The notes under the pieces are model-generated. The model searched no databases and was not told the origin of the DNA. It saw only the letters and a program-made list of their open reading frames with translations. Made by a program: the position numbers and the translations under genes. From NCBI GenBank assembly GCA_030431715.1, contig JAUIIO010000013.1, positions 39,388 through 103,387 on the forward strand: a stretch of 64,000 nucleotides of DNA, read 5' to 3'. Positions 1-53,677 of the stretch are shown in pieces. Position 1 is the first letter of the stretch. Each line of letters opens with the position of its first letter. This DNA comes from a bacterium (GTDB lineage Bacteria; Bdellovibrionota_C; UBA2361; RFPC01).

Positions 1-1309
1 TGTCTTTCATGCCATCGCCATTAAAGTCTCCAACGACGATATCAACGTGTGTGCCACTTGCATAAGATTGCGCAGTCCCAAAGTTACCTTCACCATCATT
101 TAAAAGAATATCACGATCTGATATGAGATCGATGTGTCCATCATTATTAAGATCGGCAGCTTCGAGATTTACAATAACGCCATTAGTTGAGTAAGAAGCC
201 GCAGTGTTAAAAGTACCATCGCCGTTACCTGATATGACAGCGATGCTCAGGTCAAAGTCTCCGCCTGTGGCGATATCTACATTTCCGTCTCCATTAAAAT
301 CAGCAACGCTGATGAAGGTTGCTTCTCCCAACGGTAGAGGAGCAGTGAGCGTGCTCTCGGCAAACGTTCCGTTCCGATTATTAATGAATAGCTCAAGAGT
401 ATCGTTGTATCCCCCCATAATTATATCTGCATAGCCATCATTATTAAGGTCTTCTGCTAGGAGCGTCGTGCTGTTTGGATCGGAAATCAATGTAGAAGCA
501 CTCGTAAATGTTCCATCTCCATGGCCAAAATAGATATTAACTTCGTTATCAAAAGTGTTTAGAGTTGCAATATCTAGAATACCATCATTATTGAAATCGG
601 AGCTCTTAACGCTAGTAGGATTATCTCCTGTAGAAATAATAGTTCCTTCATGAAAAGAGCCATTACCAATACCTAAACGGAGTGTTAAAGTATCATCAGC
701 TTGATTTGCAACTAAGATATCAACGTTACCATCCCCATTAAAATCACCTGCATTTATGGAAGAAGGATTACTTCCTACGCCAAATGCACCAAAATCAGAG
801 AATTCTCCCGTCCCAATAGCCCCGCCGAGCCCATCTGAAAGCAGAGCATCCGAGCCGTACCCTACCTGAAGAGATAACACTCCGTAGTCACCCTCAAAGA
901 GATTTCTACCATTAAACTCAGTAGTTTTTGCTATTCGAAAATACTCATCTTTAAGCGCCTGCGCCTCTTCATCAAGTGATGCACGCTGAGCAACGCCGAA
1001 GGTACCATTGGCTGCCTGCTCCGCGAGCTCTGTTAAGCGAAATGTAATATTAGTAAGTTCTTGTAGCGCTCCGTCTGCAATATTTACAACTGAAATTCCA
1101 TCATTGAGGTTCCTAACCCCTTGTGTAAATACTCTGGCATTTGCATTAAGACTATCAGCAATGGCGAGTCCTGCAGCATCATCGCTCGCACGATTTATTC
1201 TTTGCCCGGAAGAAAGGCGTTCAAATACCGTTTCGAGTTCTTGACTCGACCGTAACAGCTGACGCTGTCCTCGAAGTGAGGAGATATTGGAACCTAGGGT
1301 TATAGGCAT
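1..1309 (-). CDS. Flagellin N-terminal domain protein continuing into FG-GAP/VCBS repeats (N-terminal part only; the C-terminus lies beyond the window start)
   Basis: This is my own minus-strand translation from the ATG at 1309, with an in-frame TAA two codons upstream. It reads MPITLGSNISSLRGQRQLLRSSQELETVFERLSSGQRINRASDDAAGLAIADSLNANARVFTQGVRNLNDGISVVNIADGALQE..., the flagellin D0/D1 N-terminal signature. At least 6 FG-GAP-type blades follow: AGDFNGDGNVDILV, SSDFNNDGILDIAT, AEDLNNDGYADIIM, VADFNGDGNVDIAT, AADLNNDGHIDLIS, VGDFNGDGMKD. The gene is absent from the ORF track because it runs off the window edge. Confidence 0.8.
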   Translation of the reverse strand, partial: MPITLGSNISSLRGQRQLLRSSQELETVFERLSSGQRINRASDDAAGLAIADSLNANARVFTQGVRNLNDGISVVNIADGALQELTNITFRLTELAEQAANGTFGVAQRASLDEEAQALKDEYFRIAKTTEFNGRNLFEGDYGVLSLQVGYGSDALLSDGLGGAIGTGEFSDFGAFGVGSNPSSINAGDFNGDGNVDILVANQADDTLTLRLGIGNGSFHEGTIISTGDNPTSVKSSDFNNDGILDIATLNTFDNEVNIYFGHGDGTFTSASTLISDPNSTTLLAEDLNNDGYADIIMGGYNDTLELFINNRNGTFAESTLTAPLPLGEATFISVADFNGDGNVDIATGGDFDLSIAVISGNGDGTFNTAASYSTNGVIVNLEAADLNNDGHIDLISDRDILLNDGEGNFGTAQSYASGTHVDIVVGDFNGDGMKD

Positions 1310-1459
1310 CAGTTACACGCACACACTTTATAAACGCTCGACCACCGAAACGTTTCTTTAACTGCGATACTGCACGGCAAAACGATCTCAACAAAACGTT
1401 AAGCCACCCCATAAACTTCATGGTTACTTCCTTAGTAAGTAAACTACTCTACGTTAATT

Positions 1460-1486
1460 AAATCGGCTGGTTAGCTTGAATTCTTA
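1460..1486 (-). promoter_or_regulatory. Candidate sigma-28 (FliA) promoter for the flagellin-like gene
   Basis: The minus strand reads TAAG-N15-GCCGATTT, against the consensus TAAA-N15-GCCGATAA. It lies about 150 nt upstream of the ATG at 1309. Confidence 0.5.
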
Positions 1487-1703
1487 AATTGACGCGAGGC
1501 GGGTCACATGTTGAAGGGCACATCTCTTTGAGAGCTCTAAGAATTTTTCTTATTCTATTATAAATAGCTACAACCAAAGCCTATTAATCCTAGAAACAGT
1601 CTCTCTGAGTTTTCAGTGACATCGCCTTGGGCATTCAATGCACTATTTGGATCGTATTTTGCACAGCTTCAGTGCCTACAAAGAAGAAAGGGAGGAGTTC
1701 GTC

Positions 1704-2306
1704 ATGAACCGAATTACAATGAAACTCGTATTGGCTTGTTCGATGTTAACGATGTGTCTGTTCACGCCGCTGACACAAACCAGAGCTGCTTCACTGGTTG
1801 AGTATAGTTTACTGGTACAACTTTTACATTCAGTTGGTCTAGCTAGTATGAATACCAATAACTGTAATGTGACAGGAGGTGTCACAGAGTGTGGTCAAAC
1901 ATCTGCTTCAGTTGCCGCTATAGTAGCGCCTGCTGATGAAGAAGAGGCTAGCACAAATCCCGAGATTGTAGAGAGTGAGAACACGGACCCATATATGGCA
2001 GCATTTGAAACAGCTGCTAATATTGCGATTCGTAGCTGTGGAACAGCAACAGAGATGTGTGATTCACTTCAAAACGCTAAAAAGCTCTCGTTTAGGAAGT
2101 TTTTAACTTCCTATTTCAGTAGAAATGAGGCCTGCAAGGAGGCTGGAGAGAGTAAAGAATGTAAACTTGCTACCACAAACTATACTCTTGAATTAGCATC
2201 GGCCATCAATTTTCATAATTATGCAGATAGCTACTGTAAGAACGCAAAAATGACTTGCAGTGCTGGTGAATCAGAAGAGATAGAGGAAGAAGAAGAGGAA
2301 GTGTAG
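1704..2306 (+). CDS. Secreted Cys-rich hypothetical protein with poly-Glu C-terminus
   Basis: An internal ATG at 1704 is preceded by AAGGGAGGAG. The signal peptide is MNRITMKLVLACSMLTMCLFTPLTQTRA and the C-terminus is ESEEIEEEEEEV. I recognise no family. Confidence 0.55.
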   Translation: MNRITMKLVLACSMLTMCLFTPLTQTRAASLVEYSLLVQLLHSVGLASMNTNNCNVTGGVTECGQTSASVAAIVAPADEEEASTNPEIVESENTDPYMAAFETAANIAIRSCGTATEMCDSLQNAKKLSFRKFLTSYFSRNEACKEAGESKECKLATTNYTLELASAINFHNYADSYCKNAKMTCSAGESEEIEEEEEEV

Positions 2307-2352: not shown

Positions 2353-3138
2353 TTAAAGCCTCACTGGCTTAGCTTGTTCCCATATTATTTCAAAAATAAC
2401 TTCTCTAAAAAAAGTTGCTATATCTTGATTCTCTAATATGGTGCAAGTGATGCGATTATGGGTAAATGATTTTAATGAAAGACAATTGTTCCATGAAAAA
2501 ATTCCTGATGGCCACATGTGATCAGGGAGTATCCGAACTTGGACTTTAAACTCTTTTGCCCGCTTAGTGATTGTTCTTGCCCAATCAACATCAGGGAAAA
2601 TAAGACGTGAATAAATTTTCTTATTAGAACGTCTGGTAAAGTAGTCTAGCAGGTAGTTATGGCCAACAAGGTCAGAGAATAGTCCGGCATTGATGATAGC
2701 TAAGAACTCACCCCTAGCATCAAGAGTTCTTTCTAGCATGCGCTTAAACCCATCTACATCTTCATAAAACTCAACACCTGGTGTGTGTGAGTCTGGAGGA
2801 CTCACTTTGTTAAGAAAGTTAGAGAGTTGTTGCATGCTCTTTCGTTGTAAGGCTAGCGACTTTTCCTTCTGCGTAATGATATCTTCGAAGACTCGAGGTT
2901 CCTCAGCAACTATGAGCCTCTTCCGCCCTCTGCGTGTTTCAAATAGAACTCCACGTTTAATAAGTTGCTGCACGGCGCTGTGAATGGTGACCCTGTTTTC
3001 GCCTAATCTTCGAGATAGCTCCTGAACAGTTGAGGGGCCTGTCTGTAAAGCTTGAAGATAGGTCTTAGCTTCTCGCTCGGTGAAGTCTATGTGCCGAAGT
3101 TGAGCGGTAACCTTGTGAATGTCTGATTTCTTAAGCAT
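2353..3138 (-). CDS. TrmB-family transcriptional regulator
   Basis: The N-terminal winged HTH reads FTEREAKTYLQALQTGPSTVQELSRRLGENRVTIHSAVQQLIKRGVLFE, which is typical of TrmB. Confidence 0.65.
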   Translation of the reverse strand: MLKKSDIHKVTAQLRHIDFTEREAKTYLQALQTGPSTVQELSRRLGENRVTIHSAVQQLIKRGVLFETRRGRKRLIVAEEPRVFEDIITQKEKSLALQRKSMQQLSNFLNKVSPPDSHTPGVEFYEDVDGFKRMLERTLDARGEFLAIINAGLFSDLVGHNYLLDYFTRRSNKKIYSRLIFPDVDWARTITKRAKEFKVQVRILPDHMWPSGIFSWNNCLSLKSFTHNRITCTILENQDIATFFREVIFEIIWEQAKPVRL

Positions 3139-3163
3139 ATTGAATTTATGTAGAATATATCTC

Positions 3164-3180
3164 TACACATAATATGTGTA
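3164..3180. promoter_or_regulatory. 17-nt palindrome TACACATA-A-TATGTGTA in the trmB-like/SSF divergent promoter region (candidate operator)
   Basis: It has perfect 8-bp arms around a single central base. It sits 26 nt upstream of the regulator start at 3138. Confidence 0.35.
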
Positions 3181-3303
3181 AATAGTACAATATATCAAGA
3201 TGGTTATGCGGTTTAATATGATATAAAGACTTTTTGTACATAAATTTTGACAACATAGGAGGCTTCTGTACTTTAGGATTGGGAATTAGAACAGGAGTGC
3301 TCG

Positions 3304-4755
3304 GTGTCTGTATCAGCTTTATCTATTGTATTGGTCATACTCTATCTTGTGGTGATAAAGGTCATTGCCTATATGGCTCACAAGCGAAGCCTACCAACAG
3401 TGCTTGATTATTTCGTTGCAAGTAGGAGTGTATCCACTTTTGCCCTCGTAGGTACGATCCTCGCCACTATGATAAACACACTGGCGGTGACAGGTGTGCC
3501 GGCTCTTGTTTACAAAGGCGGGATACTTTACTGCCAGATGTTTGTTATAGGGATAATAGCTCCTTCGTGTATTTCAATTTTTGGTAGAAAGATCTGGAGA
3601 TATGGGAAAGAGCATAACATCTTCACTCAGGGAGAGATCTTTGGAAGGTATTATAACTCTTCAGCTATAAAACTCTGTGTAGCCGTTATCGGTCTTATTT
3701 CCGTGTTTCCATTTATGACAATTCAACTCTCTGCTGTGGGGAAAGTATTTAGCGCAGCTACTTCAGGAGCTCTTAGCTATGAGTTGGCAGTGCTGGCAAG
3801 TTCAGTATCTATTGGAGGCTACTTGTATCTTGGAGGGTCCAGAGCGGTTGTCTGGACAGATATGATACAAGCCTTTATTTTTCTCCTTATCATTGTGATA
3901 AGCGCAATTCTTTTTACCTATTGGTCAGGGGGATATGTGGATGCCGTAAGTAAACTTCAGGCAACAATCCCTGATAAGCTTACCTTTAATTCTACAAATA
4001 CGCCTATTTTTATAGATAACATTTTATCATGGCCATTCGCCTTTTTTCTCTGGCCACAACTTTTTCAGCGGATGTTTATGGCGGAATCTGAACGAGCTCT
4101 TTCCCGCTCAGTGAGCTGGAACTTCATTCTTTTTAATTTGATAGTCCTTTGTACCATGACTATGGGAATAATGGCTACTGCGACTCTTTATGGTCAGGTA
4201 CAGGATGCGGATCAAATTGTTGCTATGATGTTTCAGAGATTTTACCCGCTTGGTGCAGCGTTTATTGTTATAGCGGTGTTTGCAACTGGAATGAGTACTG
4301 TAGATAGCATCCTTCTTACATGTAGTTCAATTGTTAACAGGGATATCATTACCTTGGTACGTAAGAGCTTTTTATCAAATCGATCGGAGTTTAAAATGGC
4401 ACAGACGATAGCAATTGCATTCTTACTTCTTTCTACCGCATTTGCTCTTTCAGAGGTGGGCCGAGGTGCAATGACACCACTTGTTACTCTTGGAGCGAGC
4501 TTTGCAACACTTTTTCTCTGGCCACTTCTTGATATGTTTTATTTTAAGACTCTTGGAAAGAGCGAGATACTTCTAACAATGCTCGCAGGTGTAGTTGCAA
4601 TATGCACTGTAAAGATTACCTCTATTGGTAGCTCCTTGGGAATAGGAGTGGGGGCAGCTGGCTTTACTGTGTCCTTAACCGTATTTTTGTTTTGTCTCAT
4701 TAGAGAGCGCTTCTTGATTGATAGACGTCTGGCGATACAGACTGCCTCATTCTAA
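3304..4755 (+). CDS. Sodium:solute symporter (SSF) family transporter
   Basis: The GTG start has AGGAG 6 nt upstream. The protein has about 13 predicted TM segments and the SSF-like motif GGSRAVVWTDMIQAFIFLLII. Confidence 0.65.
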   Translation: MSVSALSIVLVILYLVVIKVIAYMAHKRSLPTVLDYFVASRSVSTFALVGTILATMINTLAVTGVPALVYKGGILYCQMFVIGIIAPSCISIFGRKIWRYGKEHNIFTQGEIFGRYYNSSAIKLCVAVIGLISVFPFMTIQLSAVGKVFSAATSGALSYELAVLASSVSIGGYLYLGGSRAVVWTDMIQAFIFLLIIVISAILFTYWSGGYVDAVSKLQATIPDKLTFNSTNTPIFIDNILSWPFAFFLWPQLFQRMFMAESERALSRSVSWNFILFNLIVLCTMTMGIMATATLYGQVQDADQIVAMMFQRFYPLGAAFIVIAVFATGMSTVDSILLTCSSIVNRDIITLVRKSFLSNRSEFKMAQTIAIAFLLLSTAFALSEVGRGAMTPLVTLGASFATLFLWPLLDMFYFKTLGKSEILLTMLAGVVAICTVKITSIGSSLGIGVGAAGFTVSLTVFLFCLIRERFLIDRRLAIQTASF

Positions 4756-8029: not shown

Positions 8030-9847
8030 TTGAGTAAACGTACTTCCATTTTTATCGTCGTTAAAATTTCACTCTTAACAGTATTAGTAGCACAGCAATT
8101 TTTTGTTTCAGCTCCCAATGAGGCTTGCGCCCAAGAGGGAGGTGTTTATGTACTGGGTTCAGGACTCACTTGTGATGCCGCTACAATACTAAATAAGAAA
8201 GGCAAGACGCTTAAAATCAAAAAAGCACGCAGGGTACTTAATAAAAAGATTAAAAAACTTCAAGGCAAGCGTGGAAAAAAAGCTAAGAAGCGAAGACAGA
8301 AATTACGTGTCACAAAAAAACTCTTAAAGTCGTGCACGAATGGCGAGTTAGAAGTTCTTCCGACCCCCATACCGACGCCAACTCCAGGTGATGATGTCAC
8401 TTTGGAGCTATCTATTGAAGATGAGCTCTGCACGAACACCACCTATGATGCGACACTTTCGTTCATACCTGCACAGGTAGGAAGATCTCTTCTCTTGCAG
8501 ATCTCTGAAAATGGAGGAGCAAGCTGGGATACTGTTGCGGTAACGGAAGGGGATGCGTCCGGAGATTCTCCAGTAGAGTACGACACGCCAAGCAGTGCAG
8601 GTACGTATCACTACCGAACTTTTGCAGAGAGCACAAACATATCAGGTGAAAAGTCTGGTACACCTATCGAGGTTACTATTTCAGATTGTGGTGTTGCGAT
8701 TGTTCCTAAGAAACTACCACTTGTTCGAGCCGGGGGGGTTCACTCATGCTTGCTGGATCTTAACGGTGAAGCGTGGTGCTGGGGGGAGAATACCTACGGG
8801 GCGGTTGGTGATGGCACTGATACTGACAGATTAAATCCGGTTAAGGTATCCGGGGGGCATAAATTTATAGATATTGAGCTGGGCGCCAGACATAGCTGTG
8901 CGCTGAAAGCCGATGGCACAGCATACTGCTGGGGGAAAGATGAAGAATTTGAGAGTCAGGGTGCACTAGGGGGTGGCTCGATAGGTAGTAAGGATGTCCC
9001 TACCAAAGTAGCAGGAGGCATAAAGTTTGCTAAGCTTGCGCTAGGTCAGGAGCACACCTGTGGCATTGCCACAAATGGTTCGACCTATTGCTGGGGGAAC
9101 AATAGACACGGGCAGATAGGCGACGGTGCAACACCTGTAAAAAGTGATAGCTACAACGGAGATGCTACTGAGTATCACAGGTACAGTCCGACTCGAGTAT
9201 CAGGTTCTCAGAACTTTGAAGATATTGTGGCTAAGGGCTGGCAGACCTGTGCGCGCACCAGCTCTGGATCTATGTACTGTTGGGGCGATTCGCCTTTGGG
9301 CTGTGACACTTGTTATAAGAATAATAGTAATATGCCTGAATTAGAACAGTCACAGGCCTTTGCTAGTATCTCTATTGGATATAGCCATCGTTGCGGAATT
9401 ACTTTTAGCGGTACAGCATACTGTTGGGGAACAGAATCCCAAGGTGAATTTGGCAACGGTAATGAAACAACAGATCCGGTATCTACAACTGAACTACAGG
9501 CTGTAGAGGGATCCGTATCATTTGCTTCTATTCATGCAGGAAACTCGTTTACCTGCGGTTTGAAATCAAATGGAGAAGCTTACTGCTGGGGGTACAATCT
9601 GCTTGGTGCAGTGGGAGATGGTACCGGAGGTTCTACGTCCCTTAACCGCCATGAGCCACGCGAGGTTTTTACAATAAGAGAGTTTGATCACCTTTCAGCC
9701 GGATATGGCCATACTTGCGCCGTGAGCCTAGGAGGTTCCGCGTATTGCTGGGGCGGAAACAATCAGGGGCAACTGGGTATAGGTATCAGCGGCTTTGGTG
9801 CTTTTCGTAGTACGCCTACGTTTGTTGGATTTTCTACTGGCCCGTAG
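8030..9847 (+). CDS. Secreted RCC1-repeat (beta-propeller) protein with N-terminal K/R-rich module
   Basis: The TTG start has AGGAGA upstream and a signal peptide follows. Residues about 48-102 are Lys/Arg-rich. Then comes a PTPIPTPTP linker and at least 7 repeats of the RCC1 type: HSCLLDLNGEAWCWGENTYGAVGDG, HSCALKADGTAYCWGKDE, HTCGIATNGSTYCWGNNRHGQIGDG, FTCGLKSNGEAYCWGYNLLGAVGDG, HTCAVSLGGSAYCWGGNNQGQLG. Confidence 0.75.
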   Translation: MSKRTSIFIVVKISLLTVLVAQQFFVSAPNEACAQEGGVYVLGSGLTCDAATILNKKGKTLKIKKARRVLNKKIKKLQGKRGKKAKKRRQKLRVTKKLLKSCTNGELEVLPTPIPTPTPGDDVTLELSIEDELCTNTTYDATLSFIPAQVGRSLLLQISENGGASWDTVAVTEGDASGDSPVEYDTPSSAGTYHYRTFAESTNISGEKSGTPIEVTISDCGVAIVPKKLPLVRAGGVHSCLLDLNGEAWCWGENTYGAVGDGTDTDRLNPVKVSGGHKFIDIELGARHSCALKADGTAYCWGKDEEFESQGALGGGSIGSKDVPTKVAGGIKFAKLALGQEHTCGIATNGSTYCWGNNRHGQIGDGATPVKSDSYNGDATEYHRYSPTRVSGSQNFEDIVAKGWQTCARTSSGSMYCWGDSPLGCDTCYKNNSNMPELEQSQAFASISIGYSHRCGITFSGTAYCWGTESQGEFGNGNETTDPVSTTELQAVEGSVSFASIHAGNSFTCGLKSNGEAYCWGYNLLGAVGDGTGGSTSLNRHEPREVFTIREFDHLSAGYGHTCAVSLGGSAYCWGGNNQGQLGIGISGFGAFRSTPTFVGFSTGP

Positions 9848-11127: not shown

Positions 11128-12099
11128 ATGAAAAAACGCGCTTCAAAATTTACATTTATAGACCTTTTTGCTGGTATTGGTGGTACGCGATTAGCGTTTG
11201 AAGCGGCAGGTGGAGAGTGTGTCTTTACTTCTGAATGGGATAAGTTTGCACAGCGTACCTATGAAGCGAACTTTGGCCATAAGCCGCATGGTGATATTAC
11301 TAAGATTGATTCCTCTAACATTCCAGAGCATGATGTTTTAGTCGCAGGCTTTCCCTGTCAGCCATTTTCGATTTCAGGGGTATCAAAGAAAAACTCTCTT
11401 GGTCGTCCAACAGGATTTAAGGATCCCACTCAAGGCACTCTCTTCTTTGAAGTGAAGCGAATTCTTAACGACAAAAAGCCGCAGGCATTCTTATTAGAAA
11501 ATGTTAAGAACCTTGTAAGCCATGATAAAGGGAGAACCTTTCAAATAATCTTGGGGTCTCTAAAAGAGATTGGATATCAGGTTTATCATCAGGTTATTGA
11601 TGCAGCTAAATACGTTCCGCAGCACCGACAGCGTATCTTTATCGTTGGTTTTCGTAATGTTGAGAGTTTTCAGTTCCCGATACCACCATCTGAAGATGCC
11701 CCCGCTTTCAAGGAGATATTAGATAGGAGCGTTGATCCCAAATATACTCTCTCAGATAAGCTGTGGCAGTACCTGCAAGATTATGCGGCAAAGCATAAAA
11801 AAGCAGGCAATGGTTTTGGTTACGGGCTTACCCCGTTGTCTGGAAGAGCAAGGACCTTAAGCGCACGGTATTATAAAGATGGGGCAGAGATACTGGTTCC
11901 CCAGCACGGTAAAAATCCTAGAAGGCTCACCCCGCGAGAGTGTGCTCGTCTTATGGGGTTTCCTGAGGATTTTAAGATCCCTGTCTCTGATACTCAGGCC
12001 TATAAACAGTTTGGAAACTCGGTTGTCGTTCCTGTAGTTGCGAGTATCGCAAATGAGATAGCTCGTGTTCTGCAACACAATCGTCAGAAAGCTGCATAG
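11128..12099 (+). CDS. DNA (cytosine-5)-methyltransferase
   Basis: The canonical m5C motifs are present in order: [10 protein letters not shown] (I), GFPCQPFS (IV), ENV (VI), QRQRIFIVG (VIII), [12 protein letters not shown] (IX) and GNSVVVPV (X). Confidence 0.9.
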
Positions 12100-19374: not shown

Positions 19375-21489
19375 TTATTGACCGTTTGAAGGTGTTCTTA
19401 AAATCAGATTTGCTTTCGTGTCAAATCCTGCAAGTTGAAAAAAATTTCTTATTCCTGTTCTTTCAAGGTCCTCTTCCGGTGCATTAAAATCACGGTGTAG
19501 TTTTAAGAGTTTTATCTTTTCAGCGTCAAGGCTCAGAGCTCTTTTCGGTTCTGACTCTCCGGTAATATGAAAAGGGTAAGCGTGAAAAGGGGGATAGTCA
19601 GGATGGACAAATGCAAGTTCAGGTAAGTCGTCAGCTTTTGAATGGCGTTGTCTAGCGCTTAGCCATTCAACCATGCTTTCGTAGCCTTCAGAGTAAAATC
19701 CTCCAAGTAGTGAGTCTTCAAACGATTGCTCGGCACCTACTGTCCAAGCGCTATAATAGTTCGTATCGAATTTCCAACGAGCGTAATCGCTATCGATCGC
19801 TTGTACCAGTGAAACAAGAAAGGCTATGTCCAGCAATCGCTCATTATCCCTATTTAATTCTAGATCGAGTATGGGAAGGAAGTCTCTCTTAAGGTCATAG
19901 TCGGAAAGAAACTTAAGATCTTCCGCGCTATAGCCCGCGCCAATACCAAGCCGAGAATGGTATGCGGGATGTGAAAACTTATCTCTTCCGAAGATAGGAG
20001 AAGAATTTCTCAAAAGAGTTGTGCCACGTTCTGGGTGGCTGATAAGCATGTGCGAGTGACGAAAGAGAAAGAACGTGTCAGAATCAAATTCTTCCCAGTG
20101 TGGATTGCCCTCTCTGACTCCGGAAAGGATGTGAATTGTCTTTGAGTTAGGCTTGAGCACAAAGCCCACCCCGTGCTTTGGGTCGGCGTCAATTCGTTGC
20201 ATGCCCCACTCTTCAAGAAGAGCGGGAAATACGACCCGCGAGCGATCTCTTTTCCATACACGCTGTGCGTCAAATTTCCATTTAAGAAAGCTGTGAGAGA
20301 GTGTTCCGATTTTGCCCCAAACCTCTACGGTATCCCAACTTAAATCAACGCGCTGCTTGAGGAATCTGGTAATTCCGGTTGCTGCAGCGGTGACGTGACC
20401 GAAGTCTTCGTTCTTCATCTCTTGCGGGGCATACAGTGGATGGTTGCAAAGAGCTAACATTTCAGCTTCGTTAGGGTGATGCCCATGGACTTCAGAATAC
20501 GAATCGTAGAGTCTTTCGACAGTGCGTAAAAGAACGCTGCAATCTGTAGGATCGCAGTGAAAGAGCAGGTCCGAAAGCAGATACGCAAAAGCTTTGTTTG
20601 TGTTTGAAGTATCAACGATAGCTTTTTTATTTGTAGCTGCTGTATATGCACTGGTGTAGTCAGCAAGGCTTTGGATGTTCTGAGTACGCGCAAAGATTTC
20701 GATTGCTTCTGTTCTAGCTCTAGGAGGAAGATTGTAGAACATGCGCTTCAGATCGGTAACGAATCTCTCATAAGGCACGTGCAAGACATCTTCCCTAGCA
20801 TACAGGCGGTATTCCTGATCTTTGTGGAAATATTCGTCCTCTACAACATCTGCTAAAAGATTTGCAAAAAGCTTTCTCTGCTTTTTTGTTACAAGATATG
20901 AGAGATCATGCTCTCGTAACGTAAGCCCTTCAGCTCGTAGCATTTTGATAAATTTGTTATCGCAGTGTTCGCCAATGAGATGAAAAGTCATAGCCGTGGA
21001 GCCGTCTTCAGCTTCAACGCACGGGTCATGTCCGAGTTCCAGTAAAGTTTTTGCTGCCTCTAGATTGTTAGAGTAGGCAGCAAGATGGAGCGGGCTGCAA
21101 TAGTCGAGGTCTATATTTAAGTCTTCGTTGCAGTACGAGTAACGGGCGTTCATATCTGCGCCAAGCCTGTGAATCTGATGAATGAGGTGTGTAGGAGCAT
21201 CATGCGCTATCATGAAGTGAAGCAGCGTAAAATCAGAGCAAGTGAATTTGCGATTTAACAGGACTGAAATCTCTTCGGGAATAAAGTGTTTTACCTGCTG
21301 TAAAGAATCAAGACTATGGCCAACCTCCTCCCAGTCAAAGGTTTCTGATGATGATTCAAACTGGATAAAAGCCTCTTCGGCTTTACTAAGTACTCTGTGC
21401 GATTTTACTAAGTTTCTATCTCTTTTGAGACATTCGTCAGGATTCTGAGATCGAGGGTCTTGATTTCTCGAATGATGGTCAGGGTGCAT
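19375..21489 (-). CDS. Ankyrin-repeat protein with about 500-aa uncharacterised C-terminal region
   Basis: The ANK repeats read FTLLHFMIAHDAPTHLIHQIHRLGADMNAR and SPLHLAAYSNNLEAAKTLLELGHDPCVEAEDGSTAM. I do not recognise the rest. Confidence 0.65.
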   Translation of the reverse strand: MHPDHHSRNQDPRSQNPDECLKRDRNLVKSHRVLSKAEEAFIQFESSSETFDWEEVGHSLDSLQQVKHFIPEEISVLLNRKFTCSDFTLLHFMIAHDAPTHLIHQIHRLGADMNARYSYCNEDLNIDLDYCSPLHLAAYSNNLEAAKTLLELGHDPCVEAEDGSTAMTFHLIGEHCDNKFIKMLRAEGLTLREHDLSYLVTKKQRKLFANLLADVVEDEYFHKDQEYRLYAREDVLHVPYERFVTDLKRMFYNLPPRARTEAIEIFARTQNIQSLADYTSAYTAATNKKAIVDTSNTNKAFAYLLSDLLFHCDPTDCSVLLRTVERLYDSYSEVHGHHPNEAEMLALCNHPLYAPQEMKNEDFGHVTAAATGITRFLKQRVDLSWDTVEVWGKIGTLSHSFLKWKFDAQRVWKRDRSRVVFPALLEEWGMQRIDADPKHGVGFVLKPNSKTIHILSGVREGNPHWEEFDSDTFFLFRHSHMLISHPERGTTLLRNSSPIFGRDKFSHPAYHSRLGIGAGYSAEDLKFLSDYDLKRDFLPILDLELNRDNERLLDIAFLVSLVQAIDSDYARWKFDTNYYSAWTVGAEQSFEDSLLGGFYSEGYESMVEWLSARQRHSKADDLPELAFVHPDYPPFHAYPFHITGESEPKRALSLDAEKIKLLKLHRDFNAPEEDLERTGIRNFFQLAGFDTKANLILRTPSNGQ

Positions 21490-32595: not shown

Positions 32596-33381
32596 ATGAC
32601 CGCTAATAAGAATGTTATGTTTGTACTCAAATATCTGAGATTCTGCAGCTTCTCAGCACTGTTTCTTTGGCTCGGGTGCTTTTATAGTTCTCCACTTCTT
32701 GCTGAAGTTCGTTTTGAGGTTGATAAGCTTAAACCTGGCCAGTCGCTGACTCTCAAATATCGTGTACGGGTTAAGAGTTCAGATTCCATTCCTCTTTCAA
32801 CTCGTGTTGTTTCAAGTCAGGGAACGGTAACACATGATGGCGCTACAGAAATATTTTATACCAGTGATCCTGAGAGTTCTCTTGTAGGGGCCTCGACGGA
32901 TACTCCTCTTGTTTTTGTCGACAGCGATGGTGATGGAATCTATGACGATCTTGATGGGTGTCCTTTTGCAGAGATAAAGACTTCTCCCGGGAGTTGTGGC
33001 TGTAACGTTTTAGATACTGATGTAAACAAAAATGGCGTAGCAGATTGTTTGCTCAATCTTGATCTCAAAGACCTTTTATCTAGAGCAGATGTTCTGGTAA
33101 GGAAACTTAAACCCAATAAGAAGCTACGAAAGAAGAAGCAGCGCAAGCGACAACGTTTGAATAAAAAGGAGCTACGAAGCCTGCGAAAATTCATTCTGGA
33201 TATTTTTAATGCTTCAGCGACTGAGCTTAGTGTCACAAGCGCAGACGTTAAGCTTCCAAAGCTCTATAAAAAGCTGAATATACAGATGCGCAAGACGCTC
33301 CGAACGGGAAGCAAGAAATTTAACAAATTTAAAAAACAAACTCGAAAATCACTAAGGAGGCTAGATGATGTCCTGCTCTAG
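32596..33381 (+). CDS. Secreted protein: DUF11-like beta domain, thrombospondin-type-3/Cys motif, long K/R-rich C-terminal tail
   Basis: After a signal peptide come LKPGQSLTLKYRVRVKS and DSDGDGIYDDLDGCPFAEIKTSPGSCGCNVLDTDVNKNGVADCL. The tail reads KLKPNKKLRKKKQRKRQRLNKKELRSLRKF...KKFNKFKKQTRKSLRRL. Confidence 0.55.
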   Translation: MTANKNVMFVLKYLRFCSFSALFLWLGCFYSSPLLAEVRFEVDKLKPGQSLTLKYRVRVKSSDSIPLSTRVVSSQGTVTHDGATEIFYTSDPESSLVGASTDTPLVFVDSDGDGIYDDLDGCPFAEIKTSPGSCGCNVLDTDVNKNGVADCLLNLDLKDLLSRADVLVRKLKPNKKLRKKKQRKRQRLNKKELRSLRKFILDIFNASATELSVTSADVKLPKLYKKLNIQMRKTLRTGSKKFNKFKKQTRKSLRRLDDVLL

Positions 33382-35818
33382 GTTCCAAATTTTTAGTGTT
33401 TTAGTGTTATGCCTGAGTACCCTCTCTCCATGCATGCTTGGAGCGCAGCAGCTCGATGCCACACTGACAGATAGGCTTCTCCAAGACGACAATGGAGATG
33501 GCAAGCTAGGTCCCGGTGAAGTACTCGAATATTCCGTCACGATTACCAATAACGGGGCAGAGACTCTGCGAGGCATAGTCTACAGTGACGTTCTTGATCC
33601 CAATGTGTCCTTGCTATCTGCCGATAGCACAGCAAAAGATGATTATTATCTTCTGACAGGGGGTAAGAGTGCCCACACTATTCCTGCTCAATACGGGTTC
33701 ATACAAAATAATGATTACGGAGCTGAGCTTTCGGTAAAGAGCCACGATGCCACTACTGAGCAGGGCTTTTCGTTATCAGTGGCTTCTGATGGAAGCTTTA
33801 CGTACACGCCGGGTACGTATCTTGGAAGAGATGGCTTTAACTACACAGTCCAAGACTCACTAGGAAATCAATTTTCAGCCAGAGTAACACTTTTTGTAGC
33901 TGGATCTCTTTACGCTGCTAATAACACCGTTAGCGATGGGGGAGTTGGGACCTTTGGCGATCCTTTTAATACCCTAGCCGAGGCAGAGCAGGAGTCAGAA
34001 GAGGGCGATGCGATATTTCTCTACAGTGGTGACAAAACAAGTAAGGGCCAAGACAGAGGGATCTTTGTTAAGAATCAACAGACTCTGATTGGTCAAAGTG
34101 TTGCTATCCCCGTATTTGGGGCTTCGGGCTATATCTCTACCCTCCCTGAAGCTACATCTGCATTAACCCGGCCTGTAGTAGTTAAGACCAGTGATGATGC
34201 AAACGGAGGTACGGCTATCATCGCAGGTGATAATACTTCTATCTTAGGCCTTCGCGTTGGCGATCTTTCCGAGCCGATTATATTTCGAAAGGGGCTTTAT
34301 GCTTTTGAATTTGGCTCTATCTTTCTTCGATTCCTCAGCTTTGCGCACAGTAATAGTTACCCTGTTGACCTCAGAGTTGGTGATGTTGACGCAGATATTG
34401 ATAGTGTTACCAATCTGAATCCTGCAGTTACGGGAGCGAGTCTGGTACATCTTGATACCTGTAGTGGGAGTCTGATGGTGAACGGTAAGGTGAAAGGAGT
34501 AAGACACGGTATCTCCGTAAGTGGATCGGTTGATGCTTATTTCCATGATGTTGAGCTTACTGATGCCGGAATTTCTTATGCCGCTGGCTCTGGCTCGCTT
34601 ACTATTGAAAGTGATGGAGGTGGTATCAATTTTACAGGACCAAATACCTCAGCAGCTTTACGTATTCAGGATGCTGCAAACTTTCTATTACGCAGTACCG
34701 ACGAGAACTCTCCTTTTGCTATTACTGATGCAGGCATCGGTCAGGGAAGTGGAGGAAGTACACATTATGCCGTCTCAATCTCTGGCAGCGAAAATATTAT
34801 TCTTGAGAATCTTGATATAGATTCTGGCTCAGGAAGCTCAGATACTGGAGTGGCTATTTTGGATTCTGATAGCGTCACCATTAAGGATACTGAGCTTACG
34901 GTGCACGGAGGATTTACGGGCTTTCGTGTAGGCTCTACGAATGCTGCTGAGAATATGAACGTAACACTCTCTGGTAATACCATTACTGGAGGAAGTTCAT
35001 ATCCGGACAATGTAAGGACCGGAGTGGCTGTACAATATAGTAGCAGCGCTTATAAAGCTCTTAAGCTCAATATCACAGGCAATACATTTCAGGCTACTCG
35101 AAATGAAGCGATTGAGCTTGGATTTCTTGACGGGTCAGGCTCCGCTGATAATAGAAATGTGGTTACGATTGAAGACAATTTTATCGCCGATCCTGGTGAG
35201 CAAGGAATTAATATTCAGAACAGCAGTGACTCAACAACACGTTTTCTTATTCGTAATAATGAGATAGATGGACAGGTATCGGTCCCCTATGCTTCCCGGT
35301 CTTCGTCCTATATCCCTCGATATGGTATCATTATACTATCAAATGATTCTTCGTTGAGTGACCTTACGATTTCTAAAAATAAGATAAACGATTTTGATAG
35401 AGACCAAGTACGAATTGCTTCAGCAGATAGTGGCTTTATTCGTACGCTCATAGAGCAGAATGAATTTCGTGCTGCTGATGAATTAAATAACGATGATGCG
35501 GCATTGTTAATAGTCTCTCAAAGTGCGGGCGATAGTGTGCACGCAACTGTTAGTGGAAACATTATAGATATGCCGGATGTCTTCTCTGGTCTGGAATTTT
35601 ACTCTCAGGGAGCTGGCTCTCTCACGTGTGCAGACATAGATGCGAACCGCGGAGATGCTCCGGGCTCAGCTCCTGATGGCAAAATCAGGCTGATAAATTC
35701 ATCGACTGGAAATCTTCAAGTTGCAGAGCTTAGTACCGTCTCAGCTAGAAACAACGGTGTTGAACTCTCAACAAGCGGTACTCTTTCAAGCGTCTCATCC
35801 TGCCAGAGTGTTCAATAG
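33365..35818 (+). CDS. Secreted adhesin-like protein: DUF11-like domain, cadherin/VCBS-like Ig domain, right-handed parallel beta-helix repeats
   Basis: After a signal peptide come GEVLEYSVTITNNG and FSLSVASDGSFTYTPGTYLGRDGFNYTVQDSLGNQFSARVTLFV. A long run of short G/N/S/T-rich repeat units typical of a beta-helix follows. The gene overlaps the upstream gene by 17 nt. Confidence 0.55.
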   Translation: MMSCSRFQIFSVLVLCLSTLSPCMLGAQQLDATLTDRLLQDDNGDGKLGPGEVLEYSVTITNNGAETLRGIVYSDVLDPNVSLLSADSTAKDDYYLLTGGKSAHTIPAQYGFIQNNDYGAELSVKSHDATTEQGFSLSVASDGSFTYTPGTYLGRDGFNYTVQDSLGNQFSARVTLFVAGSLYAANNTVSDGGVGTFGDPFNTLAEAEQESEEGDAIFLYSGDKTSKGQDRGIFVKNQQTLIGQSVAIPVFGASGYISTLPEATSALTRPVVVKTSDDANGGTAIIAGDNTSILGLRVGDLSEPIIFRKGLYAFEFGSIFLRFLSFAHSNSYPVDLRVGDVDADIDSVTNLNPAVTGASLVHLDTCSGSLMVNGKVKGVRHGISVSGSVDAYFHDVELTDAGISYAAGSGSLTIESDGGGINFTGPNTSAALRIQDAANFLLRSTDENSPFAITDAGIGQGSGGSTHYAVSISGSENIILENLDIDSGSGSSDTGVAILDSDSVTIKDTELTVHGGFTGFRVGSTNAAENMNVTLSGNTITGGSSYPDNVRTGVAVQYSSSAYKALKLNITGNTFQATRNEAIELGFLDGSGSADNRNVVTIEDNFIADPGEQGINIQNSSDSTTRFLIRNNEIDGQVSVPYASRSSSYIPRYGIIILSNDSSLSDLTISKNKINDFDRDQVRIASADSGFIRTLIEQNEFRAADELNNDDAALLIVSQSAGDSVHATVSGNIIDMPDVFSGLEFYSQGAGSLTCADIDANRGDAPGSAPDGKIRLINSSTGNLQVAELSTVSARNNGVELSTSGTLSSVSSCQSVQ

Positions 35819-51643: not shown

Positions 51644-53677
51644 TTAGAATCTGCGGCGTAACTCATAGAATTTATGCGTGTGTGGAAACACGATCTCCAT
51701 AAGATCTATCTCAGTAACTCGCAGGTCAGACTCGATGAAATGAACCGGACCTTCTAAGGAGTCGCGCCCTACCAATTCATAGCGTGTATAAGGGGTAAGG
51801 CTAGAAGTTGTCAGTTTCAATTCGTCTTCAGACATGAACTCAATCTTTGTGCCGTACGGCTTTGCCAGCGGTTCACCGATAAAGATCCCTTCGCCAGGCA
51901 TCTTTACGGACTTCCAATAAGCCTCAAGTACTGTGTTTCCAGCAAGATACGACTTTACAAAGATACTCATACGAGGAAACTTTTCGGTAAAATTACACGG
52001 CTCAACCACGGTGCCAAAGCTCGCAGTTGCTCCAGCCTCAAGCCATTTGAGTGCCTTCATCTGACCGCCACTCTCGGTAATTCTGCCGCCAAAAGAGGTC
52101 AAGTGATCCGCTACTGCGCCGGGTAAGAACGTGTTCGTATCGATGTCAGGTACATTAGTAAGACCTGTGAAGTAGAAAAGCATATCTTCTCGGTTCTCGA
52201 ACGCGTTGCCCTCGGGGTGATTATTCGTACTATTATCGACATACGTTGTGTTTATAATGTTTTGGTCATAAAAATAGCCAAGATTGTAATAGAGAAAGTC
52301 ATGATATCTTACACTTCGAGCCTCATCAGTCGTGCGTATCATATATCCACGACCCCTTGGAAATGTCTTATCAGCCGAAGCGCCAGTTCCAATGAGGTTT
52401 AAAACATTTTGAGTGTCTGTCCCGGCGAGCATCATAGTTGGTCTGATACTATGACTTGTAAATGGTGTAGAAGATGAGGAGTAGTGGTAGCCCACTATCG
52501 CGGAACGCTGACAACCCGTTCCTTCGGCCTTACAATATTTCGTGTCAAATCCAAGAGCAAAGGCGCTTGTAATTGACATGCAATCAACTCGCCACGGGGT
52601 GGTAAATGTGAGTGCATAAGCCTGAACATGTGCAGGAGTCTTACTTTGTACATCCTGATAGACAGTTTCAAAGTCAGTTCGTGAAATATTTGTAGAGCCT
52701 GTTGGGAATGTAGTCCTTATAACATTCTCTTCGGGAATGTTCCGAGCGAGCTGATAAGCTTCTGCAACTGCAACAGATTGGGGATCACTGGTGTTAACGA
52801 TGAGTGCGAGCTCGCGATGATCGATAGAGTTTCTAGGAGACATCAGTACAGCAGAGCTGCCGCTTGCGGCTTCAGATGCAATCTGCACCTCTTTATCGGC
52901 AATTGAATATGAAGTTTCACAGGAAGTTACATTAAAATCAGTGCAGGTTTTGCTACAGGTTAGCATTCCGCCTGAGAGCCCGAGATTCATATTTGAGCAC
53001 GTTGCTCCTTGAAGTATATCGTCAGCTGTTCCACATATAGTATCGGCTCCGCATTCACAAACTTCGGCTCCAGAGATTCTACCATCACCACAAACAGTTG
53101 GCTGAATATCATCGTCGCATGCATCTCCTTCACCATCACTATTCCAGTCACGCTGACCTAAGTTTGATACCAAGGGGCAGTTGTCTATTTGGTCATCGAT
53201 ACCATCTCCATCACTATCAGACGGCTCTGCTGGAGTGGGTTCAGCGGTAGGTTGAGGGGATGAGATTGGCAACTCAATAAAAGCTTCAGCTTCCTCGCAT
53301 GCAGTAAGATAGATACTTCGAAACTTTTGAAGTCTCTTTCGTTTTTTCTTTACCCTATTCTGAATCACGATCCGTGATAGGGGAGTGACACCCTTTCTCA
53401 TGCGTTTTCTGAGGCGCTTAATCTTCTTTTTATCTAGCGCTTTTTGAGTAGTAAATGTCTGGTTAGCACCCAATCGACCGACGTAGATAGTTCCACCATC
53501 ATCGTAGCAGTCAATTGATCTTACTCTCCCGGAAGGAAGTGTTGCCTCAACTGAGTAGGCACTTTGGACGGTGTCAGATTCTGCTGAAAGAGTAGAGGGA
53601 TTCGGGATTGCATGAAGAGCCTCAGGCAGGGTAACTGCGATGAGTAAGAAAATATGTAGAATCAGTTGTTTACGCAC
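51644..53677 (-). CDS. Secreted multidomain protein: K/R-rich module, thrombospondin type-3 repeat, myxococcal-type Cys-rich repeat, large C-terminal domain
   Basis: After a signal peptide the K/R module reads KKKIKRLRKRMRKG...KKKRKRLQKFR. The TSP3 repeat is DSDGDGIDDQIDNCPLVSNLGQRDWNSDGEGDACDDD and the Cys-rich repeat is CGDGRISGAEVCECG. The C-terminal 400 aa may be TIGR03790-like, but this is from memory and carries low confidence. Confidence 0.55.
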   Translation of the reverse strand: MRKQLILHIFLLIAVTLPEALHAIPNPSTLSAESDTVQSAYSVEATLPSGRVRSIDCYDDGGTIYVGRLGANQTFTTQKALDKKKIKRLRKRMRKGVTPLSRIVIQNRVKKKRKRLQKFRSIYLTACEEAEAFIELPISSPQPTAEPTPAEPSDSDGDGIDDQIDNCPLVSNLGQRDWNSDGEGDACDDDIQPTVCGDGRISGAEVCECGADTICGTADDILQGATCSNMNLGLSGGMLTCSKTCTDFNVTSCETSYSIADKEVQIASEAASGSSAVLMSPRNSIDHRELALIVNTSDPQSVAVAEAYQLARNIPEENVIRTTFPTGSTNISRTDFETVYQDVQSKTPAHVQAYALTFTTPWRVDCMSITSAFALGFDTKYCKAEGTGCQRSAIVGYHYSSSSTPFTSHSIRPTMMLAGTDTQNVLNLIGTGASADKTFPRGRGYMIRTTDEARSVRYHDFLYYNLGYFYDQNIINTTYVDNSTNNHPEGNAFENREDMLFYFTGLTNVPDIDTNTFLPGAVADHLTSFGGRITESGGQMKALKWLEAGATASFGTVVEPCNFTEKFPRMSIFVKSYLAGNTVLEAYWKSVKMPGEGIFIGEPLAKPYGTKIEFMSEDELKLTTSSLTPYTRYELVGRDSLEGPVHFIESDLRVTEIDLMEIVFPHTHKFYELRRRF

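Follow-up and report, generated by a model that had tools for sequence, protein, structure and literature searches.

A flagellin gene in a Bdellovibrionota genome with a predicted FG-GAP beta-propeller as its outer domain

The gene and its full-length protein

We analysed a stretch of 64,000 nucleotides (contig JAUIIO010000013.1 of assembly GCA_030431715.1, positions 39,388 to 103,387 of the forward strand; GTDB lineage Bdellovibrionota_C), hereafter referred to as the window, at the left edge of which lies a minus-strand gene for a flagellin that carries an FG-GAP beta-propeller (i.e., a propeller flagellin). The minus strand of positions 1-1309 holds a single uninterrupted frame of 436 codons, which runs from an ATG at 1307-1309 to the window edge and whose translation contains the strings ERLSSGQRINRASDDAAGLAIADSL and NDGISVVNIADGAL. 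A protein-database entry of 611 amino acids (P0001, encoded on a 107,830-bp contig) is 100% identical over all 436 window residues. Since this full-length protein exists in the database, the gene is truncated by the window and not by the assembly. The last 175 residues lie outside the window and are known from P0001 only; beyond the edge they add blade 7 of the propeller and a Flagellin_C domain. In guanine-cytosine (GC) content the gene does not stand out from the window, and a tblastn search of the window did not find a second copy. The main features of the gene are the following.

1..1309, minus strand: coding sequence of the propeller flagellin, codons 1-436 of 611 (open frame; 100% identity to residues 1-436 of P0001)
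890..1291, minus strand: Flagellin_N (PF00669), N-terminal D0/D1 helices, residues 7-140 (predicted helices 9-33, 45-100 and 106-129)
2..826, minus strand: FG-GAP beta-propeller (PF13517), residues 162-436 of 162-512, comprising the GGAIGTGEF segment and blades 1-6 (all-beta; predicted local distance difference test score, pLDDT, >90; Foldseek matches)

The initial annotation, made from the letters of the window, had recognised a flagellin D0/D1 N-terminus, and profile searches bear this out. Flagellin_N matches residues 7-140 with an E-value of 3.2e-36 (124.9 bits against a cutoff of 26.6), and Flagellin_C (PF00700) matches residues 528-609 of P0001, outside the window, with an E-value of 4.5e-23. 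The top NCBIfam models for the window protein are all flagellins (E 1e-62, about 212 bits), compared with 103.6 bits for the FlgL model TIGR02550, which remains under its own cutoff of 127.2. By these scores, the propeller flagellin is nearer to flagellin than to the paralogous hook-associated protein FlgL. None of the flagellin equivalog models reaches its own full-length cutoff, as expected given the foreign middle domain. In a sequence search of the PDB, the matches are filament flagellins, aligned via N-terminal plus C-terminal stretches.

The middle of the protein is covered by FG-GAP repeats. In the window part, FG-GAP_3 (PF13517) is found in six stretches (E 1.6e-45) together with FG-GAP (PF01839, E 2.2e-15), while in the full-length protein PF13517 is found in seven stretches (E 1.1e-50) and PF01839 has an E-value of 6.6e-15. 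Thus the profile comparison proposed in the initial annotation returns strong matches for the flagellin domains at both ends and for the FG-GAP families between them. At least six D-x-N-x-D-G-x-x-D blades had been described as continuing to the window edge; indeed, six of these motifs lie inside the window (at residues 189, 238, 287, 337, 386 and 428) and a motif scan of P0001 places a seventh at residue 476, past the edge. The motifs are spaced by 42-50 residues across the seven blades, and 76 of 102 aligned relatives likewise have seven. The motif is nearly invariant throughout the family. With one motif per blade, up to seven Ca2+ are predicted to bind to each subunit. The loops within the window, located by the motif scan, are listed below with the positions that are invariant in the 102 sequences.

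719..745, minus strand: predicted calcium loop of blade 1, DFNGDGNVD, residues 189-197 (D189 and D197 invariant)
572..598, minus strand: predicted calcium loop of blade 2, DFNNDGILD, residues 238-246 (D238 invariant)
425..451, minus strand: predicted calcium loop of blade 3, DLNNDGYAD, residues 287-295 (D295 invariant)
275..301, minus strand: predicted calcium loop of blade 4, DFNGDGNVD, residues 337-345 (D337 and D345 invariant)
128..154, minus strand: predicted calcium loop of blade 5, DLNNDGHID, residues 386-394 (D386 and D394 invariant)
2..28, minus strand: predicted calcium loop of blade 6, DFNGDGMKD, residues 428-436 (D428 and D436 invariant)

Structure prediction with AlphaFold2 and the 102-sequence family alignment gave a confident model (pLDDT 91.2, predicted template modelling score 0.83) with helices at 9-33, 45-100, 106-129 and 517-610 and an all-beta region at 144-503. 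According to the model, a normal D0/D1 helical core is combined with a seven-bladed propeller in the D2/D3 position; an AlphaFold prediction was among the checks proposed in the initial annotation. Foldseek searches of the PDB returned flagellar filament subunits as the top matches of the core. For the propeller, they returned BBSome propellers, KICSTOR ITFG2, the PVL lectin (21% identity), CRTAC1 and TcB with E-values of 1e-9 to 1e-10. By sequence, the propeller has a single PDB match, a weak one (E 2e-5), to the FG-GAP part of a secreted esterase. No propeller was found in a solved flagellin by either the PDB sequence search or Foldseek.

The D-x-N-x-D-G-x-x-D loops connect strands 1 and 2 of each blade in the predicted strand order. 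The calcium hairpins of integrin alpha likewise lie between strands 1 and 2, and calcium binding by such loops is established for integrins. The 3-4 loop of each blade is formed by a GxGDGxF motif, except in blade 7, which is without one. A nearly invariant GGAIGTGEF at residues 162-170, directly after D1, provides the GxGxGxF that blade 7 lacks. The propeller is therefore closed by its own two ends, which fits an inserted domain; this closure geometry is taken from secondary structure and not from coordinates. In composition, the propeller (348 residues) is strongly acidic, with a net charge of -46 (family median -31.5), an isoelectric point of about 4.05, six Lys plus Arg and no Cys.

A family of flagellins with the same architecture

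The family was defined from the best 120 database matches, all with E-values below 1e-100 and representing clusters at 90% identity. Of these, 110 combine Flagellin_N, FG-GAP and Flagellin_C in colinear order, so that at least 110 proteins have the architecture, and the 102 aligned members are 606-666 amino acids long. A propeller within a flagellin had been regarded as a rarity in the initial annotation, a view that at least 110 clusters contradict. The same census disposes of a candidate explanation that we considered and rejected, namely an assembly chimera or pseudogene in which a flagellin fragment has been joined to an unrelated FG-GAP gene. The frame is unbroken, with no frameshift or assembly join, the GC content is in line with the window, and the same colinear order, at lengths of 606-666 amino acids, recurs in more than 100 independent sequences of varied origin. 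We give this explanation practically no weight.

Conservation is distributed unevenly along the protein. Column entropy across the 102 members is lowest in the calcium loops (0.96 bits) and the GxGDGxF loops (1.11 bits), intermediate in the core helices (1.36 bits) and highest in the remaining propeller (2.4-2.7 bits). Accordingly, both sets of loops are more conserved than the filament core, and the rest of the propeller is hypervariable. Mean pairwise identity is 61% and 54% in the two parts of the core, compared with 40% in the propeller. Outside the calcium and GxGDGxF structural motifs, no conserved position was found in the propeller across the 102 members. Assuming standard propeller topology, both conserved sets of loops would share one face, and the opposite face would be formed by the variable 2-3 and 4-1 loops.

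The closest known relatives of the core come from a single NCBI contig of 58,383 bp, which encodes four propeller-flagellin paralogues (P0003, P0006, P0022 and P0028). Their cores are 77-85% identical to that of the window protein and 83-92% identical to one another, compared with 31-39% identity in the propeller (33-39% among the four). Among species-representative genomes, full-length matches come from three Bdellovibrionota metagenome-assembled genomes (MAGs) within the best 80 loci, and one of them, CAYGNZ01, has four propeller-flagellin loci. When the core is placed in a neighbour-joining tree, the 102 propeller flagellins group in a single clade that excludes 19 short flagellins, an outcome that the choice of sequences favours. 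Related Bdellovibrionota genomes encode ordinary flagellins in tandem, 277-287 amino acids long; in the cultured-type members (Bdellovibrio, Halobacteriovorax, Bacteriovoracaceae) these measure 277-283 amino acids. A metagenome scan with patterns from the conserved N-terminus recovered mostly ordinary flagellins and one partial propeller-flagellin member.

Labelled examples of the family are mostly MAGs assigned to Bdellovibrionota. The MAG labels on those NCBI members that have function names are Bdellovibrionales, Deltaproteobacteria, Pirellulales and Paceibacterota; the last two may be binning errors. The function names themselves are 'FG-GAP-like repeat-containing protein' or 'VCBS repeat-containing protein', the other NCBI members being called 'hypothetical protein', and seven JGI and NCBI names are generic (flagellin, flagellin-like hook-associated protein FlgL, hypothetical), the FlgL name being that of several JGI entries. 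Under such names, these flagellins can readily escape a motility survey of uncultured bacteria that relies on annotation, or be misnamed in it.

A profile search of 1.84 billion proteins was dominated by giant multi-propeller FG-GAP proteins of 1,129-7,386 amino acids (P0243-P0392), each of which has the complete seven-blade unit (profile positions about 166-510) 4-15 times over. These giants are a candidate source of the propeller module captured by the flagellin. We regard the whole-propeller unit as a widely used, presumably extracellular module that was captured once by a flagellin lineage.

One family member was seen in a phage context. P0005 (48% identical) is encoded at positions 2359-4212 on the plus strand of locus L163:154-10161 (ENA ERZ26692762 ctg65437). 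It lies on the opposite strand between phage packaging genes (small terminase, E 2e-33; HNH endonuclease, E 1.7e-21) and a phage DNA primase (E 2.9e-77). The placement resembles that of a moron gene within a phage or prophage and was seen once. No full-length family member was found in viral contigs (IMG/VR), and viral structure matches cover the propeller part only.

Promoter, leader and neighbourhood

Upstream of the gene we distinguish two further features.

1460..1486, minus strand: sigma-28 (FliA)-type promoter-like site, TAAGAATTCAAGCTAACCAGCCGATTT (TAAG-N15-GCCGATTT), the sole TAAR-N15-GCCGAT match in the window
1310..1452, minus strand: putative 5' leader of about 140 nt, placed by the position of the promoter-like site

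Sigma-28-type promoters are typical of flagellins, and the site fits the sigma-28 consensus TAAA-N15-GCCGATAA. The TAAG-N15 element that the initial annotation had related to class 3 flagellar regulation is thus present, in the correct orientation and 151-177 nt upstream of the ATG. The pattern TAAR-N15-GCCGAT has this one match on both strands of the window (128 kb searched), compared with 0.18 expected from shuffles. A relaxed form of the pattern, tuned after the sequences had been seen, precedes 7 of 11 family genes on the sense strand, where shuffles lead one to expect 0.17 and not one of 3000 reaches seven; the antisense strand upstream of the same 11 genes has no match.

The leader folds no better than shuffled sequences (z -0.52), has no Rfam match and shows no sigma-70-like site on its strand. 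An open reading frame (ORF) of 66 amino acids within it (1221-1421, minus strand) was considered as a gene and rejected as probably spurious; its peptide is not conserved in related loci. This ORF, which in a different frame extends 88 nt past the start of the flagellin, is preceded by a strong ribosome-binding site (AAGGAAG-N6-ATG).

Neither a conserved neighbour nor a flagellar cluster turned up in the window or at five related loci; the relatives likewise stand alone in varied neighbourhoods. The neighbours in the window include a TrmB-like regulator, a sodium:solute symporter, an RCC1-repeat protein, a cytosine methylase, a sulfatase, HflX and ClpA. Relatives of this ClpA are 60-67% identical, with none higher, and have mixed labels (Dadabacteria, Oligoflexia, Bdellovibrionales, Pseudomonadota). 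The organism would belong to an uncultured deep lineage, plausibly within or close to Bdellovibrionota. Divergent from the flagellin lies an ORF of 222 amino acids (1638-2306, plus strand) that probably starts internally, at codon 23, and has a signal-peptide-like segment, many cysteines and a poly-Glu tail. No Pfam family matches it, and it is not conserved beside the other family members. The RCC1-like protein (8030-9847, plus strand; 605 amino acids, E 7.6e-65) is itself a seven-bladed propeller, unrelated to that of the flagellin. The cytosine-5 DNA methylase (11128-12099, plus strand) matches with an E-value of 8.8e-98, and the scanned ORFs around it yielded no restriction enzyme. Further repeat proteins have a calcium-binding thrombospondin type-3 repeat (51644-53677, minus strand), Big_9 and DUF11 domains (33365-35818, plus strand) and an ankyrin repeat (19375-21489, minus strand). 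These three large proteins suggest a genome rich in surface or eukaryote-like repeat proteins.

Proposed role, alternatives and relation to known systems

We consider it likely that the gene encodes a filament-forming flagellin, expressed as a late flagellar gene, whose outer domain is a calcium-stapled seven-bladed propeller. Transcription would most likely start from the sigma-28 (class 3) promoter. The protein would be exported unfolded via the flagellar type-III channel and would polymerise via its ordinary D0/D1 helical core, with a single FG-GAP propeller of about 350 residues placed at the D1-to-D2 junction in replacement of D2/D3. The acidic, cysteine-free and Gly/Asp/Asn-rich domain may stay unfolded in the low-calcium cytoplasm, calcium stapling its blades after export. 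On the filament, the propeller could form a rigid scaffold whose fast-evolving acidic face is displayed roughly 20,000 times; we see it as a scaffold with a variable surface because the conserved loops would lie on one face and the other loops and the strands are hypervariable. With a propeller about 5 nm across, the filament would by our estimate measure roughly 20-22 nm, similar in thickness to the Salmonella filament, and the propeller footprint would come close to the subunit spacing of the surface lattice. Of the giant or functionalised flagellin envisaged initially, the domains and the model favour the functionalised part, whereas at 611 amino acids the protein is not a giant.

Judging from the pattern of conservation in the sequences, the role of the propeller is probably surface diversification, with or without calcium-dependent binding. 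Candidate roles are the evasion of flagellum-targeting phages or grazers and variable lectin- or adhesin-like contacts. Outer domains of flagellins govern how the filament meets phages, grazers, surfaces and viscosity. If the proposal is true, coating a filament with about 20,000 integrin-like calcium propellers would amount to a new architecture for the outer domain. It would also be a natural setting in which to ask how cells keep a large repeat domain unfolded during type-III export and let it fold once it is outside.

Several points weigh against this proposal. Both the incorporation of the protein into the filament and calcium binding by the seven loops are predicted from sequence, the latter from the motif. 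The flagella of cultured Bdellovibrio are sheathed, and an exposed variable surface makes less sense under a membrane sheath. Among 30 large ORFs of the window there is no other flagellar gene, fliA included, and none was found beside the relatives. The flagellin ATG is without an obvious Shine-Dalgarno sequence, and the post hoc tuning of the relaxed promoter pattern also has to be held against the promoter evidence. Finally, an ordinary short flagellin encoded outside the window may build the bulk of the filament, leaving the propeller flagellin a minor component.

This last point leads to an alternative that is compatible with a filament-forming propeller flagellin and that we hold possible, although clearly on the less probable side: a minor or conditional flagellin that polymerises in part of the filament or under some conditions, while ordinary flagellins of 280 amino acids build the rest. 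Bdellovibrio, Caulobacter and Vibrio offer precedents for multiple flagellins, and the tandem ordinary flagellins of related Bdellovibrionota genomes, the isolation of the gene from any flagellar cluster and the 51-54% identity between its N-terminus and two of these ordinary flagellins (at loci L007 and L012) all agree with such a division of labour. However, four loci in CAYGNZ01 and four paralogues on one 58-kb contig look like a main repertoire and not an accessory one, and within the best 80 loci the short flagellins recovered never came from a genome that carries a propeller flagellin. A more radical view, which resembles the case of Campylobacter FlaC, is that the flagellin ends are a type-III export signal for a cargo that does not polymerise, the propeller being released as a soluble lectin or adhesin. 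FG-GAP propellers are common as extracellular binding modules, and the whole-propeller unit occurs up to 15 times in giant surface proteins. Yet, as is generally known for flagellar type-III export, an N-terminal segment suffices as the signal, while here full D0/D1 regions stand at both ends (Flagellin_C, E 4.5e-23), the termini match solved filament subunits and the core evolves slowly relative to the propeller. Because the full-length protein ends in Flagellin_C, the N-terminus is not merely a borrowed export signal; the complete C-terminal polymerisation domain contradicts the export-only option raised in the initial annotation, and we consider a secreted cargo very unlikely.

Equally improbable in our judgement is an enzymatic flagellin, in which the propeller would be a displayed catalytic domain (e.g., glycan-degrading), as in flagellinolysins. 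Enzymes are known from the variable region of flagellins (PMC5595980, PMC7643111), and the weak PDB match of the propeller is to the FG-GAP region of a secreted esterase. However, apart from the two structural loop motifs, the propeller has no position conserved across the family, and no catalytic Pfam domain matched in full-length P0001. We disfavour an enzyme because there is no conserved pocket, one face is invariant and the other hypervariable, and near-identical cores are shared by divergent propellers.

An extension of the filament-forming proposal remains speculative, and we rate it as rather unlikely as a whole: propeller flagellins may constitute a calcium-gated, exchangeable system of flagellar surface variation. 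The near-identical core would let paralogues co-assemble or replace one another, and the hypervariable propeller face on show would differ from one paralogue to the next. Folding would be switched by the seven calcium sites, so that the 350-residue domain remains competent for export as long as it is inside the channel. New variants could be spread by phages, and the phage-borne member at L163 might bring about lysogenic conversion of the flagellar surface.

Among known systems, canonical flagellins such as Salmonella FliC (1ucu) and Pseudomonas FliC (8sug) have the same D0/D1 core with an outer domain inserted at the D1 hairpin, and both ends of the propeller flagellin match these chains in sequence and in fold. 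In the propeller flagellin, by contrast, one seven-bladed FG-GAP propeller, bearing seven calcium-loop motifs, makes up the whole outer region. The same seven-bladed fold, with D-x-N/D-x-D-G-x-x-D hairpin loops between strands 1 and 2, is found in integrin-alpha-type propellers (integrin alpha, PVL lectin 4up4, CRTAC1 9etn, ITFG2, BBS proteins, TcB), but these belong to receptors, lectins or toxins and none is inserted in the subunit of a self-assembling helical filament. RTX domains, which adopt a beta-roll fold, undergo calcium-dependent folding after type-I secretion. They are comparable in their acidic Gly/Asp/Asn-rich repeats, in having one calcium site per repeat and in crossing a narrow channel unfolded, although fold and secretion system differ; calcium-gated folding of the propeller remains putative.

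Giant flagellins (PMC6248924) also have an enlarged variable region, with more than 1000 amino acids, whereas the propeller-flagellin family does not exceed 666. Flagellinolysins (PMC5595980, PMC7643111), in which a metallopeptidase is inserted in the variable region, likewise display a recognisable foreign domain in thousands of copies per filament. Their domain is an enzyme with HExxH, while that of the propeller flagellin is a repeat scaffold without a conserved pocket, and no peptidase was among the Pfam matches of full-length P0001. An AlphaFold survey published in 2024 groups the outer domains of flagellins into 682 clusters (Fields et al., PMC11532411). In a passage of a few sentences that describes no experiment, it mentions 'WD40-repeats in cluster #55', which have cellular homologues and were probably co-opted, so that there too a beta-propeller is predicted as a flagellin outer domain. 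No WD40 family is among the Pfam matches of full-length P0001 at E-values up to 0.01. Cluster #55 may be the propeller-flagellin family under a loose name. We found no paper linking flagellin with FG-GAP or VCBS repeats.

Taken against these systems, propeller flagellins are real, widespread in uncultured bacteria and structurally distinctive, and they are not a new category of system. Because a rigid conserved frame is paired with freely variable loops, they offer an attractive display scaffold.

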